Source: Geobacter metallireducens GS-15 (GTDB lineage: Bacteria; Desulfobacterota; Desulfuromonadia; Geobacterales; Geobacteraceae). Taken from it: a stretch of DNA of 32,000 bases. A model generated the notes under the pieces. It saw only the letters and a list, made by a program, of their open reading frames with translations. It did no database searches and was not told where the DNA came from. The DNA is taken from NCBI RefSeq assembly GCF_000012925.1, contig NC_007517.1:510001-542000 (forward strand), read 5' to 3'. The translations under genes were made by a program, and so were the position numbers. Shown one piece after another: positions 4,280 through 25,114 of this stretch (position 1 is the stretch's first letter; the number at the start of each line of letters is the position of its first letter).

Positions 4280-4344
4280 GTAGGGGCGCTGCTTGCCGCA
4301 CCCTTTGTGCAGTTGAAGAAGGGCGCGGCAAGCGGCGCCCCTAC
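4280..4344. repeat. 26-bp-arm intercistronic hairpin (cobU|cobT)
   Basis: GTAGGGGCGCTGCTTGCCGCACCCTT (4280-4305) and AAGGGCGCGGCAAGCGGCGCCCCTAC (4319-4344) are reverse complements at 24/26 positions, with a 13 nt loop. Confidence 0.8.
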
Positions 4345-4369
4345 GAATAATCTTGAAAAGAGGTACTCT

Positions 4370-5431
4370 ATGACCCTGTTGACCGAAACCCTGTCAAATA
4401 TCCGTCCCGTGGACGCCGGCCTCATGGCCCAGGCCCAGGCGCGGCTCGACAACAAGACCAAGCCCATCGGCTCCCTCGGCCGCCTGGAGGAGTTCGCCCG
4501 GCGCACCGTGGCCATTAGCGGGAGCCTGGACCCTTCTACGGCGAAGAAAGCGATCTTCACCTTCGCCGCCGACCACGGGGTGGTGGAGGAGGGGGTTTCC
4601 GCCTTCCCGAAGGAAGTGACGGTCCAGATGGTCTTCAATTTCCTCAAGGGGGGAGCCGGGATCAACGTCCTTGCCAACCACGTGGGTGCCGATGTCCTCG
4701 TGGTGGACATGGGGATCGACCATGATTTCGGCGACACCCCTGGCCTCATCGACCGCAAGGTGGCCCGCGGTACCCGCAACATGGCGAAGGGGCCGGCCAT
4801 GACCCGGGAGGAGGCCGTGACGGCCCTGGAAGCGGGGATCGAACTGGCCTGCGGCTGCAAGGCCGACGGAGTTGCCATGGCGGGTACCGGGGAGATGGGA
4901 ATCGGCAACACGACGGCGGCATCGGCCATCATCGCCGCCTTCTCCGGGAAAACCGTCGCCGACGTGACCCACCGGGGAACCGGCATCAATGACGCCGCAC
5001 TGGCGAAGAAGGTCACGATCATCGAGCAGGCCCTTGCCGTGAACCGCCCCGACCCGAAGGACCCCATCGACGTCCTTGCCAAGGTGGGGGGGCTGGAGAT
5101 CGCCGGCATCGCCGGCCTTGTCCTCGGCTGCGCCGCCAATCGGATTCCGGTGGTGGTGGACGGCTTCATCTCCACGGCCGGCGCCCTCATTGCCTGTGAG
5201 CTTTGCCCCACGGTGAAGGAGTACATTTTCGCGGCCCACGAGTCGGTGGAGATCGGCCACCGGTTCATGCTGGAGCGGATCGGCGCGGAACCGATCCTCG
5301 ATCTGCACCTGCGCCTCGGCGAGGGGACCGGAGCGGCTCTGGCCATGGGGCTCATCGAAGCGGGAGTCAAGATTCTGAAAGAAATGGCCACCTTCGCGGA
5401 GGCCGGCGTGGAAAAAGGCCGGGACCAGTAA
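4370..5431 (+). CDS. cobT: Nicotinate-nucleotide--dimethylbenzimidazole phosphoribosyltransferase
   Basis: ATG at 4370 after [56 protein letters not shown] are CobT signatures. The stop TAA (5429-5431) lies inside a degenerate heptamer unit of repeat A. Confidence 0.9.
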
Positions 5432-5559
5432 CCGGGGACCAGGGACTGGGAAAACCTTTATCCAACCGATGAACGGGATCAGGAACATGAATATGCTGAA
5501 GTCGCATGAGCAGAAGAGGTTTTTTACCGGTCCCCGGTCCCCGGTCCCCAGTCCCCGCC
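5417..5559. repeat. GGGGACC-heptamer inverted-repeat element A (spans the cobT stop and cobS 5' end)
   Basis: + arm GGCCGGGACCAGTAACCGGGGACCAGGGACTGGGAAAACC (5417-5456). - arm GGTTTTTACCGGTCCCCGGTCCCCGGTCCCCAGTCCCCGCC (5518-5559). 61 nt spacer containing ATGs at 5469, 5487 and 5493. Confidence 0.85.
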
Positions 5560-6293
5560 TTTTCTTTATCGCCTTCCAGTTCCTGACCATCATCCCCCTG
5601 CCGTTCACCCTCCGTTGGGAGGAGAACGACCTGGGGCGCTCCATGGCGTTCTTTCCCCTGGCGGGGCTCACCATAGGCGGGCTCCTGGCCGGGGCTGACT
5701 TTCTCCTGGCGGAGGTTCTGCCCCGCCCGATTGAGGACCTCCTCCTGGTGGCGCTCCTGGCGGCCATGACCGGGGCGCTCCACCACGACGGGCTCGCCGA
5801 TGTCTGCGACGGCCTGGCTGCCCGGGGGAGCCGGGACCGTTTCCTGGCGGTGATGAAGGATTCGCGCATCGGCGCCGTGGGGGTGGTGGGGCTCGTGCTG
5901 GGGCTTCTCCTCAAGTACCAGGCCCTCCTGGCCCTTTCCCCCGAGGTGAAGCGCCAGGTCCTCTTCTTCTTCCCGGCCGTGGCCCGCTTCGCCCAGGTGC
6001 AGATGACCGTCGGTTCCCGGCGGGCTCGGGAGGACGGCCTCGGCGCCGCCTGTATCGCCGGTGCCGGTGTGACACAGCTTCTGGTGGCTGGGGCCATAAC
6101 TCTTGCTGCGACGTATTTTCTTCTCGGCATGAAGGGGATCGGTTGCTGGGCGGTCCTCTCCCTCTTCACGGCCGGGACAAAGGCCTGGTCCCACCGGCGC
6201 CTCGGCGGGGTGACCGGCGATGTCATCGGCTGTGCCAGTGAGTTGAACGAAATTATCTGCCTGCTGATTATTGTGGGCATGCAGAAGATGTAA
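5469..6293 (+). CDS. cobS: Adenosylcobinamide-GDP ribazoletransferase (cobalamin 5'-phosphate synthase)
   Basis: FQFLTIIPLP..., HHDGLADVCDG, multiple TM segments typical of CobS. Start uncertain (ATG 5469, 5487 or 5493, none with a strong SD). All candidates force translation of the C-rich repeat arm (TGPRSPVPSPR) as an N-terminal extension. Confidence 0.8.
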   Translation: MNGIRNMNMLKSHEQKRFFTGPRSPVPSPRLFFIAFQFLTIIPLPFTLRWEENDLGRSMAFFPLAGLTIGGLLAGADFLLAEVLPRPIEDLLLVALLAAMTGALHHDGLADVCDGLAARGSRDRFLAVMKDSRIGAVGVVGLVLGLLLKYQALLALSPEVKRQVLFFFPAVARFAQVQMTVGSRRAREDGLGAACIAGAGVTQLLVAGAITLAATYFLLGMKGIGCWAVLSLFTAGTKAWSHRRLGGVTGDVIGCASELNEIICLLIIVGMQKM

Positions 6294-6303
6294 GGAAAGC
6301 GAC

Positions 6304-22730: not shown

Positions 22731-22746
22731 AAAGGTTTTACGAATA

Positions 22747-23946
22747 ATGAAAGAAACCTTCGACCACGGCGGCACGGTCTTCGCCGTTGCCCGCCAACTG
22801 GGCGTTTCCCCCGATGAGATTCTCGACTTCTCGGCGAGCATCAACCCCCTCGGCCCCCCGGTGGAGGCACGCGGAGCGGTGGCGGCCGCCTTTGACCGGC
22901 TCGTCCACTACCCCGACAGCGGGGCCACGGAACTGCGGGATGCCCTAGCCCGCCGCCACCATCTTCTTCCCGAAAATATCTGCGTTGCCAATGGCTCCAC
23001 GGAACTGATTTATCTGGTTCCCCGGCTCGTCGGCGGCAGACGCGGCCTCATCGTCGCCCCCCCCTTCTCCGAGTATGCCAAGGGGCTCTCCCGGGCCGGC
23101 TGGGAGATCGACTATCTGGACCTCTCCCCCGCCGATTGCTTTACCCTTCACCTGGAGGCTCTCGACCAGCGCCTGGCGAAGGGGTGCGATCTCCTCTTTC
23201 TCGCCAATCCCGGCAATCCGACAGGGGCGCTTATCCCCCGCGAGGTCATCGTTGAGGTCGTCAGCCTCTGCCGCCGCCACGGTACCTTCCTCGTTCTCGA
23301 TGAGGCGTTCATCGACTTTTGCGAGGAGGAGTCGGCCACGGACCTGGTGGTCGCAGGGGAAGGGGCTGTGGTACTCCGCTCCATGACCAAGTTCTACGCC
23401 ATTCCGGGGCTCCGACTCGGCTACGCCATGGGGAGCGAGGAGGTAATCGCCCGGCTCTCCGCTCTGCGGGAGCCCTGGAGCGTCAACACCCTGGCCCAGG
23501 CCGCCGGCCTCGCCTGTCTGGCTGACGGGGAGTACCCGGCCCGGACCCGCGCCCTCGTGGAGACGGAGCGGGAGTGGCTTTCCGCCGGCATCGCCAGACT
23601 GCCGGGGCTTGCGGTCTATCCTTCCGCCGCCAACTACCTCCTGGTCCGGATTGACGCCGGACCCACGGCCCCGGAGCTGGCCACGCGGCTTCTCGCCGAG
23701 CGGGTCCTCATCCGGGACTGCTCCTCCTTCCGGGGGCTTTCGGAGCGGTTCTTCCGGGTTGCCGTGCGGGGGACAGAGGAGAACAGAAGGCTTCTGGAAT
23801 TGTTGGGGAGGGTTTTTGCTGTGGATATCACTCGAAAACACAGAGCAACCGTGTTCTCAGTCAACAAATTAGTGCAGAAGTGGAGTGAATTTCGAGTGAT
23901 CCCACTTCTGGTTGTTTTTCACCATGGCATTGAGGATGGTGAGTAG
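22747..23946 (+). CDS. cobD: L-threonine-O-3-phosphate decarboxylase, with a 3' tail altered by IS insertion
   Basis: HGG...[48 protein letters not shown] (PLP lysine) are CobD class I/II aminotransferase-fold motifs. From codon ~368 onward the ORF reads into the IS element, antisense to the transposase 3' end. Confidence 0.85.
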
Positions 23947-24825
23947 TTTTCGCATGCAAGCGGTGATCGCGACTTTGTGAAGTTTTCCGGCGCTTGTAAG
24001 GCGTTGATAGAAGGCTTTTATAACCGGGTTAAACCTGGCGGCACACAATGTTGCCATGTACAGGACAGAACGCACGGTTGCTCTGCCACCGGAGATTGCG
24101 CGCTTTCCACGGAATTTGCCACTGTCCCGATTATAGGGGCATACTCCGACCAGAGCGCCAAGCTGCTGTCGGGAAATGGTCCCCAACTCCGGAAGTGCTG
24201 CCAGTATGGTGGCCGCAGTCACAGGGCCGATGCCCTTGACACTGGTAAGGATTTCTTCTTTTGCCTTCCAGGATTCGCTGGACTGAATAAGAGTTGAGAT
24301 GTCTTTATCAACGTCATCGATCTGCTGTGTCAGCCAGGCAATATGGGTCATGATGCCTTTGCGGACCGTAGGTGCAGCGGAAATCACGCGATTTTTTTCC
24401 GCCACAAGCATCTCGACCAACTGCCGGCGGCGGGCCAGCAGTGCTGCTAGATTTTGGCTTGTCTCGTCCTTGAGCGGCCTGATTTCAGGCTTGATGGCTT
24501 GGGCAAATCGGGCAATGATCTTGGCATCAAGAATATCGGTCTTCGCCAGCAGCCCGCATGCTTTGGCAAAGTTTCTGACCTGCCGAGGATTAACCACGAC
24601 CACTGGCAGACCCGCTGCTGATAAGGTGCTGACAGCTAGCATCTCCAAGCCGCCGGTGGCTTCGAGAACAATCCGACAAGGGGCGTTCGTAATGAGCCAC
24701 GTCGTCAGCTCAGCACAACCGGCATCATCGTTAGTCACCCTTTTCTGGTCACCAGTTGGCATGAGGTAGACATCAAGATGCTCTTTACTAACGTCGACTC
24801 CAACAACTGCATCATTGGGTTCCAT
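23869..24825 (-). CDS. IS110-family DEDD transposase/recombinase
   Basis: ATG at 24825 after [19 protein letters not shown] (D), [10 protein letters not shown] (E), [12 protein letters not shown] (D..D). C-terminal Transposase_20-like domain ([43 protein letters not shown]). The track ORF extension to 25053 is rejected. Confidence 0.9.
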
Positions 24826-25009
24826 ATTCTCTCCAGTCCCTTTCTTGCGAAAATTCGGGCTCGTTTCGGCCCAAGCAACCGTTCGGGTTGAGGAAAGATG
24901 GACACGACGCATTACGCTCTGTGACGGGCTCAATTGGCCCAAGCAACGACCAAGCTGTCGTGTCCAATTCTGGAGAACATATAACCGGTTACTGAAACAT
25001 ACAAGCAAC
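24826..25009 (-). ncRNA. Candidate IS110 bridge (guide) RNA region in the transposase 5' leader
   Basis: 184 nt non-coding leader. 12 nt direct repeat GGCCCAAGCAAC at 24868-24879 and 24936-24947, whose AGCAAC equals the junction hexamer. CAAGCAACCGT (24872-24882) is identical to the predicted circle junction (25002-25009 joined to 23850-23852). Confidence 0.4.
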
Positions 25010-25114
25010 TGAGCAACTGAGAAAAATCTTTGAGAATGAATAACCTGGAGCAATAGTTACAGTACCCTGTGTGCTTGACGAGTTGCTTTCTCTGTTGCTC
25101 TGTTGCTCTGTGTT
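25010..25114. repeat. CACAGAG/AGAGCAAC-type hairpin F5 (remainder; first 13 nt of arm 1 at 23837-23849)
   Basis: Arm 1 remainder TGAGCAACTGAGAAA (25010-25024), 62 nt spacer, arm 2 TTTCTCTGTTGCTCTGTTGCTCTGTGTT (25087-25114, period 8). Confidence 0.75.

Follow-up and report, generated by a model that had tools for sequence, protein, structure and literature searches.

Inverted tandem short repeats in the B12 biosynthesis cluster of Geobacter metallireducens: catalogued dispersed elements with lineage-dependent units at persisting sites

The cobalamin (vitamin B12) biosynthesis genes of Geobacter metallireducens GS-15 are interspersed with predicted hairpins whose arms consist of short tandem units, which raises the question of whether these hairpins serve the operon or belong to the genome at large. 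The genes lie in a stretch of 32,000 nt (NCBI RefSeq contig NC_007517.1, positions 510,001-542,000, forward strand), hereinafter referred to as the window, and coordinates below are those of the window unless stated otherwise. The hairpins are already catalogued dispersed short-repeat elements, published for exactly this locus. Probably, if with considerable reserve, they should be understood as inverted short-tandem-repeat elements of the genome kept alike by recombination, and not as a B12-specific device.

The published coordinates of Gmet_H407-H413 equal the window coordinates plus 510,000, and the gene assignments of Table S4 match as well: H408 lies in cobS, H409/410 in cbiD, H411-413 in cobQ, and I302A/B between cbiG and cobQ. 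The unit consensus sequences agree with the published classes H4, class 1, class 2, and class 3. H4 was described as four GGGACCG heptamers at 49 intergenic and intragenic sites, with pairs on opposite strands at a variable distance; class 1 as 24 pairs of four GTTGCTYN units, with ISGme8/ISGme9 at a fixed distance; class 2 as 21 pairs of three TCTCCGTS[Y] units, “evolutionarily related” to class 1; and class 3 as 8 pairs of five MTYCTGA units (Aklujkar et al. 2009, BMC Microbiol 9:109, PMC2700814). Classes 1-3 were named unique to G. metallireducens, and binding of integration host factor (IHF)/HU or of a “global regulator”, or a function as regulatory RNAs, was suggested (PMC2700814). The elements of the window are the very same sequences as Gmet_H4xx and classes 1-3 of that paper, which made no comparison of orthologous loci.

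From the published H4 list, the coordinates and strands (not the sequences) were used here. Pairs no more than 500 nt apart are invariably oriented (+,-), with 11 such cases vs. none of (-,+). The flanks around the H4 units are conserved (outer AAAGGCC, inner GGAAAAC), and the same families flank unrelated genes throughout the genome.

The orthologous loci were compared by junction-by-junction alignment of eight clusters, i.e., that of G. metallireducens and seven others, among which L001 is G. hydrogenophilus, L007 is G. pickeringii, and the other five (L002-L006) are metagenome-assembled genomes or metagenome contigs. In G. metallireducens, all cluster gaps of at least 37 nt hold an element, the remaining junctions being overlaps or gaps of at most 24 nt. 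The occupancy of the junctions is as follows:

cobT-cobS: GGGACC pair in G. metallireducens only; pair of other units (GGGGCTC/GGGACTG) with a 17-nt spacer in L006; GTAG-type palindrome in L004
cobT-cobS, further loci: overlapping stop/start codons in L001, L002, L005, and L007; L003 ends short of the junction
cbiO-cbiX: class-2 pair, filled in three of eight clusters (G. metallireducens, L005, L007)
cbiG-cbiH: class-3 pair, filled in two of eight (G. metallireducens, L003)
cbiB-cobD: class-2 pair, filled in two of eight (G. metallireducens, L004)
bzaF-cbiM: class-2 pair, filled in six of eight; both arms change together
cbiF-cbiG: solo arm, retained at the equivalent position in G. metallireducens and L002-L005, either intact or decayed

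Over cobU-bzaF, G. hydrogenophilus shares 94-98% nucleotide identity with G. metallireducens, yet its cobT-cobS junction is empty; relative to it, the element of G. metallireducens has replaced about 20 nt (CGGAAGGGGAATATTGAGA) of an overlap junction. No target-site duplication was found when filled and empty cobT-cobS and cbiO-cbiX sites were compared. As the orthologous junctions of the sister genomes are overlapping stop/start codons, the gaps exist because the elements open them. The earlier remark that genes joined by overlapping codons have no element is, hence, true but circular. The empty junctions also imply that the operon works without the elements in these sister species. Their absence from orthologous clusters of close relatives, which the first-pass annotation had itself named as an outcome that would count against a role in the transcript, is largely what was found, G. 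hydrogenophilus included. Judging by these alignments, the elements are recent lineage-specific additions and not an ancestral design of the B12 operon. The locus is, at the same time, an unusually good natural experiment: four families contribute ten elements to a single operon of 21 kb, and several of these are missing from a sister species of 94-98% identity, so that effects on transcript processing, translational coupling, and protein function are directly measurable by comparing G. metallireducens with G. hydrogenophilus.

That the inverted tandem repeats are real and non-random, as first proposed, is borne out by the statistics. A repeat search, Tandem Repeats Finder, and direct reading were used to find the inverted pairs; a strict array detector found 10 arrays in the window, whereas 100 dinucleotide shuffles gave 0.21 on average and never more than 2, and strict complementary pairs numbered 3 vs. 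0 in 100 such shuffles. Altogether, the B12 cluster harbors ten tandem-unit element copies (about 18 arms) in 21 kb, along with one palindrome resembling repetitive extragenic palindromic (REP) elements. Each arm comprises 3-5 tandem copies of a unit 7-9 nt long, the first arm of a pair is without exception the purine-rich one, and an inner GAAAA/TTTTC edge is common to all families. The features are the following (dG, folding free energy; z, score of the fold as RNA; F1-F5, elements so labeled):

4267-4357, no strand: REP/REPIN-like palindromic doublet with GTAGGGGCG...CGCCCCTAC heads in the cobU-cobT gap; no tandem units; dG -58.4 kcal/mol, z -9.9
5413-5457, + strand: H4 left arm Gmet_H407, AAAAGGCC(GGGACCN)4GGAAAAC, with the cobT stop codon inside; published coordinates 515413-515457
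5519-5563, - strand: H4 right arm Gmet_H408, apparently translated as a CobS N-terminal extension FFTGPRSPVPSPR; “within Gmet_0468 cobS” in Table S4
9615-9643, + strand: class-2-type left arm (F1), ACGGAGAG twice plus CACAGAGA, in the bzaF(thiC-2)-cbiM gap
9745-9762, - strand: remnant right arm of the bzaF-cbiM element, one TCTCCGTGT unit; z -3.1
12362-12393, + strand: class-2-type left arm (F2), CACAGAG plus 2 nt, three times, in the cbiO-cbiX gap; z -6.6
12439-12470, - strand: class-2-type right arm in the cbiO-cbiX gap, from the repeat search
14206-14250, + strand: H4 arm Gmet_H409 within cbiD, encoding GIGDRGPGTG
14445-14489, - strand: H4 arm Gmet_H410 within cbiD, encoding GSRSPVPGPWS; native TPxAxxLxPLVxxANTAR replaced, length unchanged
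18058-18090, - strand: solo class-2-type pyrimidine arm (F3), CTCTGTGAC CTCGGTGTC CTCTGTGGC, immediately 5' of the cbiG ribosome-binding site
19162-19198, + strand: class-3 left arm Gmet_I302A, CAGAATT/CAGAAGC, in the cbiG-cbiH gap
19225-19251, - strand: class-3 right arm Gmet_I302B in the cbiG-cbiH gap; z -1.8, weak
19998-20022, + strand: extra partial GGGACC array (3 units) where the cbiH-cobQ linker begins
20025-20069, + strand: H4 left arm Gmet_H411 within the linker joining cbiH and cobQ in frame in one fused open reading frame (ORF); dG -92 kcal/mol, z -9.9
20117-20161, - strand: H4 right arm Gmet_H412 in the cbiH-cobQ linker
20867-20911, + strand: solo H4 array Gmet_H413 in the cobQ portion, translated as RGSGTGDRGPGEK
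22612-22640, + strand: degenerate class-2-type (CACAGAG) left arm (F4) in the cbiB-cobD gap; z -2.2
22706-22735, - strand: degenerate class-2-type right arm (F4) in the cbiB-cobD gap
23838-23850, + strand: outermost unit AACACAGAGCAAC of a class-1 left arm, severed from it by an insertion sequence (IS); the cobD ORF reads through
23851-25003, - strand: IS110-family insertion sequence with the transposase at 23869-24825 (DEDD_Tnp_IS110 and Transposase_20); boundaries within a few nt
25004-25025, + strand: rest of the class-1 left arm (F5), octamers AGCAACTG twice, then AGAAAAA
25086-25113, - strand: class-1 right arm (F5), CTCTGTTG 2.8 times; z -4.5

The limits given by the repeat finder for the GGGACC inverted pairs are 5413-5454/5522-5563 at cobT-cobS and 20026-20062/20124-20160 at cbiH-cobQ. 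This inventory departs in several respects from the first-pass annotation. The hairpin at 4280-4344 between cobU and cobT had been counted among those with tandem units, of which it has none, being the doublet at 4267-4357. The two cbiD arms and the solo cobQ array had been overlooked. Placement in intercistronic gaps is confirmed for several elements but not for those at the cobT end and the cobS start, in cbiD, in the cbiH-cobQ linker, and in cobQ, which fall into coding sequence; of the seven H4 arms in the window, six lie inside or overlap coding sequence. The cobS frame, for instance, passes through the H408 right arm, with the start codon apparently coming from the spacer. The families had also been called unrelated: there are indeed several, but the F5 octamers CAACAGAG and the CACAGAG/ACGGAGAG units have a common core and form hybrids, and the GAAAA/TTTTC edge occurs in all. 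The units of F2, F3, and F4 are the TCTCTGTG variant of class 2.

The palindrome at 4267-4357 looks, from its sequence, like a true REP member. The GTAG-headed doublet at the cobU-cobT junction is also present in L001, L002, and L005 with a differing internal stem and absent in L007; no RAYT (Y1 transposase) gene is among the genes of the window. The tandem-unit elements resemble REP/BIME/REPIN sequences as short dispersed inverted doublets between co-transcribed genes that form stable mRNA stem-loops and show presence/absence polymorphism. They differ from REP in that their arms are direct repeats, not palindromes, without a GTAG head, in that their spacers are unconserved, and in the occurrence of copies within ORFs.

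CbiD (369 aa, encoded at 13536-14645), which matches the G. metallireducens protein at 100% identity, carries the arms H409 and H410, enclosing 204 nt of native, conserved, translated cbiD. The right-arm region has equal length in all eight loci. Species lacking the array have the conserved native segment TPxAxxLxPLVxxANTAR there, and array-bearing ones have GSRSPVPGPWSRY or ESRVPSPGLS instead. The equal length together with the loss of the native segment indicates that the array replaces native sequence and is not a simple insertion. The total length of the cbiD arrays is kept even though the repeat phase shifts by 1 nt.

At these sites, the unit itself differs between lineages. GGGACCG units are found in G. 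metallireducens, L004, and L002, whereas in L003 the cbiD pair, the linker pair, and the solo cobQ array are all composed of GGGACTC (15 units out of 15). In L006, GGGACTC/GGGGCTC units occupy the same sites, but the right arm of the linker is CCCCCAG. The solo cobQ site contains (GGGACTC)7 in L003 and (GGGGAGC)4 in L002 and is non-repetitive in L007. In more distant Geobacteraceae, GIGDRGSGIG is encoded at the cbiD site, implying GGGGATC units. The lineage variants alter the loop (ACCG, ACTC, GAGC, AATC) and keep the GGG tract. Selection for pairing does not explain this joint switch of units, since the solo arrays have no partner and 204 nt of translated sequence lie between the cbiD arms; hence, a genome-wide copying process or a trans-acting constraint must operate.

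A comparable switch was encountered outside Geobacter, at the glyA-nrdR junction of Xanthomonas (regions compared: L159 2755-2855 and L018 313-439). X. campestris has a convergent pair (GGGAATN)4...(NATTCCC)4, and X. translucens has (GGGACCG)4...(CGGTCCC)4 with a spacer unrelated to that of X. campestris; in X. oryzae (L160), a 171-aa gene and no arrays are found there. Thus, the sites stay in place and the unit type changes from lineage to lineage, a pattern seen in Geobacter and, in Xanthomonas, at a single junction; no earlier report of this was found in the literature searched, full-text searches for the repeat strings returning nothing relevant. The repeat classes as such have been known since the work on cyanobacterial short tandemly repeated repetitive (STRR) sequences; the unit switching at kept sites is the new observation and a concrete handle on the generating mechanism.

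To what extent the architecture is spread beyond these genera was assessed by scanning 185,579 species genomes for (GGGACCR)2GGGACC, which gave at least 120 loci; the list of taxa is a lower bound. Among the matches listed are Xanthomonadales (X. translucens, X. populi, Pseudoxanthomonas, Stenotrophomonas nitritireducens, Rhodanobacteraceae), as well as Acidobacteriota, Gemmatimonadota, Planctomycetota, Streptomyces, Frankia, and Geobacteraceae. In the same 120 listed loci, four-unit arrays are the mode (84 out of 173), neighboring arrays are oriented (+,-) in 31 pairs vs. (-,+) in 4, with an A-rich inner flank as in G. metallireducens, and some arrays appear in frame within genes. The unit types seen in these loci depend on the pattern searched for and, being biased in this way, were not drawn upon as evidence. 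The same detector finds four units in five of the seven GGGACC arrays of the window (3 and 5 in the other two), and the G-rich arm comes first in all three GGGACC pairs. In two of the loci (L033, L094), the arrays contain blocks of differing units, as slippage would give. GGGACY-type arrays, some of them in convergent pairs, also occur in 29 predicted viral contigs (L128-L156).

Two further arrangements were noted in this material. The same design is also formed by other heptamers; for example, an Acidobacteriota metagenome-assembled genome (L032, 3491-3730) has a convergent (GTGAATA)n...(TATTCAC)n pair enclosing (GGGGACC)4, i.e., two nested heptamer families. A viral contig from the metagenome of L004 (L131, 560-650) contains a G. 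metallireducens-type arm, TTAAAGGCC(GGGACCG)3GGTAAAGGC, directly followed by a REP-like hairpin with GTAGGGGCG.

The closest known relatives of the H4 elements are the heptamers capable of forming G-quadruplexes (G4), a group that includes cyanobacterial STRR1 (Rehm et al. 2015, PMC4692102). A preference for four units, 70-75 convergent pairs per genome, and positions after stop or before start codons were described there for the Xanthomonas unit GGGAATC (X. campestris, X. citri) and the Nostoc unit GGGGA(C/T)T, and no regulatory role was found for them (PMC4692102). H4 resembles these repeats in the 7-nt unit with a G3-4 tract, the four units, the convergent pairs, the sites conserved between relatives with varying length, and the placement of arrays with a G-rich sense strand after stop codons and of those with a C-rich one before start codons. 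It differs in the unit, GGGACCN, and in its frequent in-frame location in genes, coding sequence being under-represented among the repeats of PMC4692102. The other three families of the window are not G-rich and cannot form G4. The earlier view of several families with one design, not copies of a single mobile repeat, is sustained. The design recurs with lineage-specific units in Geobacter, Xanthomonas, and many other phyla. A common generating or maintaining mechanism, which had been offered as one option, fits best, given the same four-unit, purine-first, convergent design, described also for the GGGAATC repeats (PMC4692102).

The class-1 element at the cobD 3' end had been taken for a plain hairpin; in fact, F5 is a class-1 pair (23838-25113) with the left arm split by a 1.15-kb IS110-family element. 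Copies 99% identical to this IS are present at two other loci, L157 (G. metallireducens RCH3; 2290-3500) and L158 (1-1200). All three are flanked by ...GTTGCT|IS|GTTGCTC[TC]GTGTT, which puts the IS into the outermost unit of an arm rich in pyrimidines, the pair being of class 1 or a class-1/2 hybrid; the insertion into the class-1 arm is site-specific. In this respect, the IS is comparable to IS110/IS1111 elements targeting REP sequences, with their fixed insertion in multicopy palindromes; REP elements are given as insertion targets of these IS families in a later paper citing Tobes & Pareja 2006. By analogy with other IS110 elements, a guide (bridge) RNA directed at the class-1 target may be encoded in the non-coding stretch of about 180 nt (24826-25003) that lies upstream of the transposase. 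The cobD ORF (22747-23946) lacks its ancestral stop codon and runs through the orphaned class-1 unit into the IS, such that CobD has 399 aa vs. about 357 aa in relatives, with a foreign C-terminal tail of about 40 residues. A related IS is located at the orthologous cobD 3' site in L003.

How such arrays may arise and remain alike can be outlined as follows. The arrays of 7-9-nt units would grow and shrink by replication slippage, and their likeness within a genome would be kept by template switching between arms and ectopic gene conversion between loci. They would persist at sites that tolerate an untranslated stem-loop or a Gly/Pro-rich peptide, overwriting tolerant loops and linkers as in cbiD, cbiH-cobQ, and cobQ. 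In a polycistronic mRNA, the intergenic copies would form stem-loops with free energies of -24 to -92 kcal/mol, uncoupling neighboring cistrons, and may slow down 3' exonucleases like REP/BIME sequences do, as a side effect and not as the reason for their presence. Slippage combined with conversion fits the block-wise mixed arrays (L033, L094) and the same-length replacement. When all seven spacers were compared by BLAST with the window and with each locus retrieved, the only matches were orthologous sites; as the spacers are unique, whole elements are not being copied.

A Gly/Pro-rich peptide is a possible reason for the entry of H4 into genes. The idea that H4 alone enters genes due to being stop-free in six frames was rejected, as idealized class-2 arrays and one class-1 variant are stop-free, too. 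In-frame residence has a parallel in the Rickettsia palindromic elements, reportedly selfish sequences situated in frame in protein genes and adding a peptide at tolerated surface positions. Those are single units of 100-150 bp inserted whole, whereas here two 45-nt arrays flank native sequence and replace residues with the length kept. Another parallel is the Foldback element of Drosophila, with inverted arms of tandem short subrepeats and a variable or absent central loop; it is eukaryotic and kilobase-sized, with a transposase in some copies, and no homology to the elements of the window is implied.

Several facts sit uneasily with dispersed elements homogenized by slippage and recombination. 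Neutral scattering does not explain their extreme local density: 7 of the 49 H4 arms of the 4-Mb genome fall within 15.5 kb (Poisson P ~1.5e-9), and about ten elements of all classes within 21 kb. The strict polarity and the four-unit mode, which slippage and conversion do not predict, suggest that a structural constraint operates or that the mechanism is oriented. RecA-type conversion between tracts of 28 nt is expected to be inefficient. The bzaF-cbiM pair, kept in six of eight clusters with co-changing arms, could reflect a function. Nor does such a process account for the origin of the unique spacers, e.g., the 67 nt at cobT-cobS, and no enzyme or binding factor was identified.

The alternative favored by the sheer stability of the stems, and by an element in each gap of at least 37 nt, is that of RNA structures selected to punctuate a transcript of more than 20 genes, as stabilizers against 3' exonucleases, as processing sites setting the stoichiometry, or as pause sites. 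As RNA, the four strongest elements have dG of -52 to -92 kcal/mol and z of -6 to -9.9, and REP/BIME elements do stabilize mRNA in E. coli. The bzaF-cbiM element, besides changing in both arms, occupies the position where G. sulfurreducens has a second B12 riboswitch at cbiM that is missing in G. metallireducens (Aklujkar et al. 2009, PMC2700814); no riboswitch precedes cbiM in the latter. At the same time, z-scores of the elements range from -9.9 to -1.8, and two pairs, class 3 (-1.8) and F4 (-2.2), fold barely better than shuffled sequence. Arm mismatches on the transcribed strand, in the window and relatives, comprise 27 G·U vs. 25 A·C, approximate counts since the registers of F1 and the L003 class-3 pair align poorly; as an A·C mismatch is G·U only on the antisense strand, this balance gives no sign of selection for mRNA pairing. 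No terminator-like tail (short-loop G+C stem with a T-run) was found on any element in the window scan, which also revealed no terminator or promoter at the elements (11 terminator matches vs. 13.2 expected). Rfam at a permissive threshold returned for the hairpins merely sub-threshold microRNA-precursor noise, none reaching the gathering score. Considering also that most elements are missing from orthologous clusters, where the genes overlap, that the same families stand beside unrelated genes genome-wide, and that solo and paired arrays switch unit together, with the cbiD arms 204 nt apart in a translated ORF, the role in mRNA stabilization, processing, or pausing proposed by the first-pass annotation is unlikely. 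Co-evolution with a factor acting in trans would yield a lineage-specific unit at conserved sites. The arrays might be DNA sites for global regulators or nucleoid proteins, e.g., extra IHF/HU paralogues, with paired sites bending or looping DNA, as put forward in PMC2700814, where extra IHF/HU genes of G. metallireducens are reported. Arms of 3-5 short direct repeats are typical for multimeric DNA-binding proteins, and the IS targets a fixed point of the class-1 arm. This possibility is nevertheless considered quite improbable: the binding is putative, the arrays within ORFs replace coding sequence, GGGACCN recurs in phyla unlikely to have one regulator in common, and some 50 sites could hardly change alongside the specificity of a regulator without a copying mechanism.

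For the GGGACC (H4) family alone, selection could act on a G4 or i-motif in DNA or RNA, modulated by the partner arm via a competing hairpin. The family has exactly the four G-tracts per arm that are the minimum for G4, the motif G3+N3-4 x4 is present, four units are the mode (84/173 among the matches listed; 5/7 window arrays), and the variants change the loop but retain the GGG tract. In vitro, G4 structures of very high stability are formed by (GGGGACT)4 and related oligonucleotides (PMC4692102), a measurement on a related unit and not on GGGACCG; no regulatory role emerged in that study, and a nearby complementary arm favors the duplex hairpin. Since, moreover, the CACAGAG, CAGAAKY, and GTTGCTCT families share the architecture and are left unexplained, this proposal seems just as doubtful as that of binding proteins. 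A low probability of the same order is assigned to foldback or miniature inverted-repeat transposable elements mobilized in trans, the arms being terminal inverted repeats composed of subterminal transposase-binding repeats. The fixed polarity of the arms, like that of transposon ends, the conserved outer AAAGGCC and inner GGAAAAC flanks of H4, and the presence/absence polymorphism at junctions of close relatives are in line with it. It is contradicted by the lack of a target-site duplication, with about 20 nt of target deleted at cobT-cobS, by spacers unique to each locus with no shared internal sequence, by the 204 nt of native cbiD within a pair and array regions length-matched to non-array orthologues, and by the abundance of solo arrays; the sole transposase nearby is the IS110 enzyme, for which the arrays serve as a target, not as the termini of its own element. 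Slightly less improbable than these, and slightly more so than the RNA-based account, is the continual rewriting of arrays at fixed chromosomal sites from a lineage-specific master sequence. It draws on the joint switch of paired arms and solo arrays (GGGACCG to GGGACTC in Geobacter, GGGAATC to GGGACCG at glyA-nrdR of Xanthomonas), the constancy of about four units and of polarity, and the total length kept in cbiD despite the 1-nt phase shift. If true, it would mean an undiscovered widespread host process writing short tandem repeats into DNA, also on resident phage genomes; directed gene conversion would be one candidate for this process, and template-directed synthesis at nicks another. Under the favored interpretation of dispersed repeats kept alike by recombination, too, the value of the locus lies in what makes, orients, and maintains inverted arrays of heptamers and octamers, and not in a new B12 regulatory device.

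Regarding the gene setting, Pfam bears out the earlier gene names (CobU, DBI_PRT/CobT, CobS, ThiC-like bzaF, CbiM, CbiX, and the aminotransferase CobD) and reveals cbiH and cobQ as a single TP_methylase-CobQ fused ORF of 801 aa. A Cobalamin riboswitch at 3460-3664 (109.8 bits), upstream of cobU, is the sole element of the window at the Rfam gathering score. Just 3' of its aptamer and immediately before the cobU start, a 13-bp terminator-like stem with a T-rich tail is found at 3719-3749. In place of the second riboswitch of G. sulfurreducens, the bzaF-cbiM gap of G. metallireducens carries the class-2 pair.

The identity to G. hydrogenophilus along 3600-24000 is mosaic: 94-98% over cobU-bzaF and 85-92% from cbiM onward, with further swings to 80% at 18.0-18.3 kb and 94-95% at 15.3-16.5 kb. 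One switch, at about 9.6 kb, falls at the bzaF-cbiM element, and G. metallireducens is closest to L006 there. Such a profile suggests recombination within the cluster.

The junctions of the B12 clusters of the relatives are hot spots for small accessory modules. In the window, two small ORFs between cbiD and cbiET (14655-15336) have an 86-90% nucleotide match to an NTP_transf_2 (MNT)/HepT-like (HEPN) toxin-antitoxin pair, present in the same place in L001, L003, and L004 and absent in L002 and L005-L007. Other modules include BrnT/BrnA between bzaF and cbiM in L003 and L004, an MT-A70 methyltransferase gene at a cluster junction of L006, an AAA_15 and DUF4276 pair upstream of cbiG in L007, and a HAMP histidine kinase between cobQ and cbiB in L002 and L005. 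A PNPOx-like gene is situated between cbiC and cbiD in L001, L003, L006, and L007 and is absent in G. metallireducens.

Next to the class-1 pair, a 563-aa ORF (25134-26825, - strand) gives no Pfam match at 1e-5; it has a J-domain-like “KAIHPD” motif, and its L004 homologue has a faint LRR match. Farther downstream, at 31726-31767 and 3' of an ORF ending at 31708, a stem of 16 perfectly paired bp (TGAAAAAAACCCCGAC/GTCGGGGTTTTTTTCA), bordered on either side by A/T runs, looks like a bidirectional intrinsic terminator.

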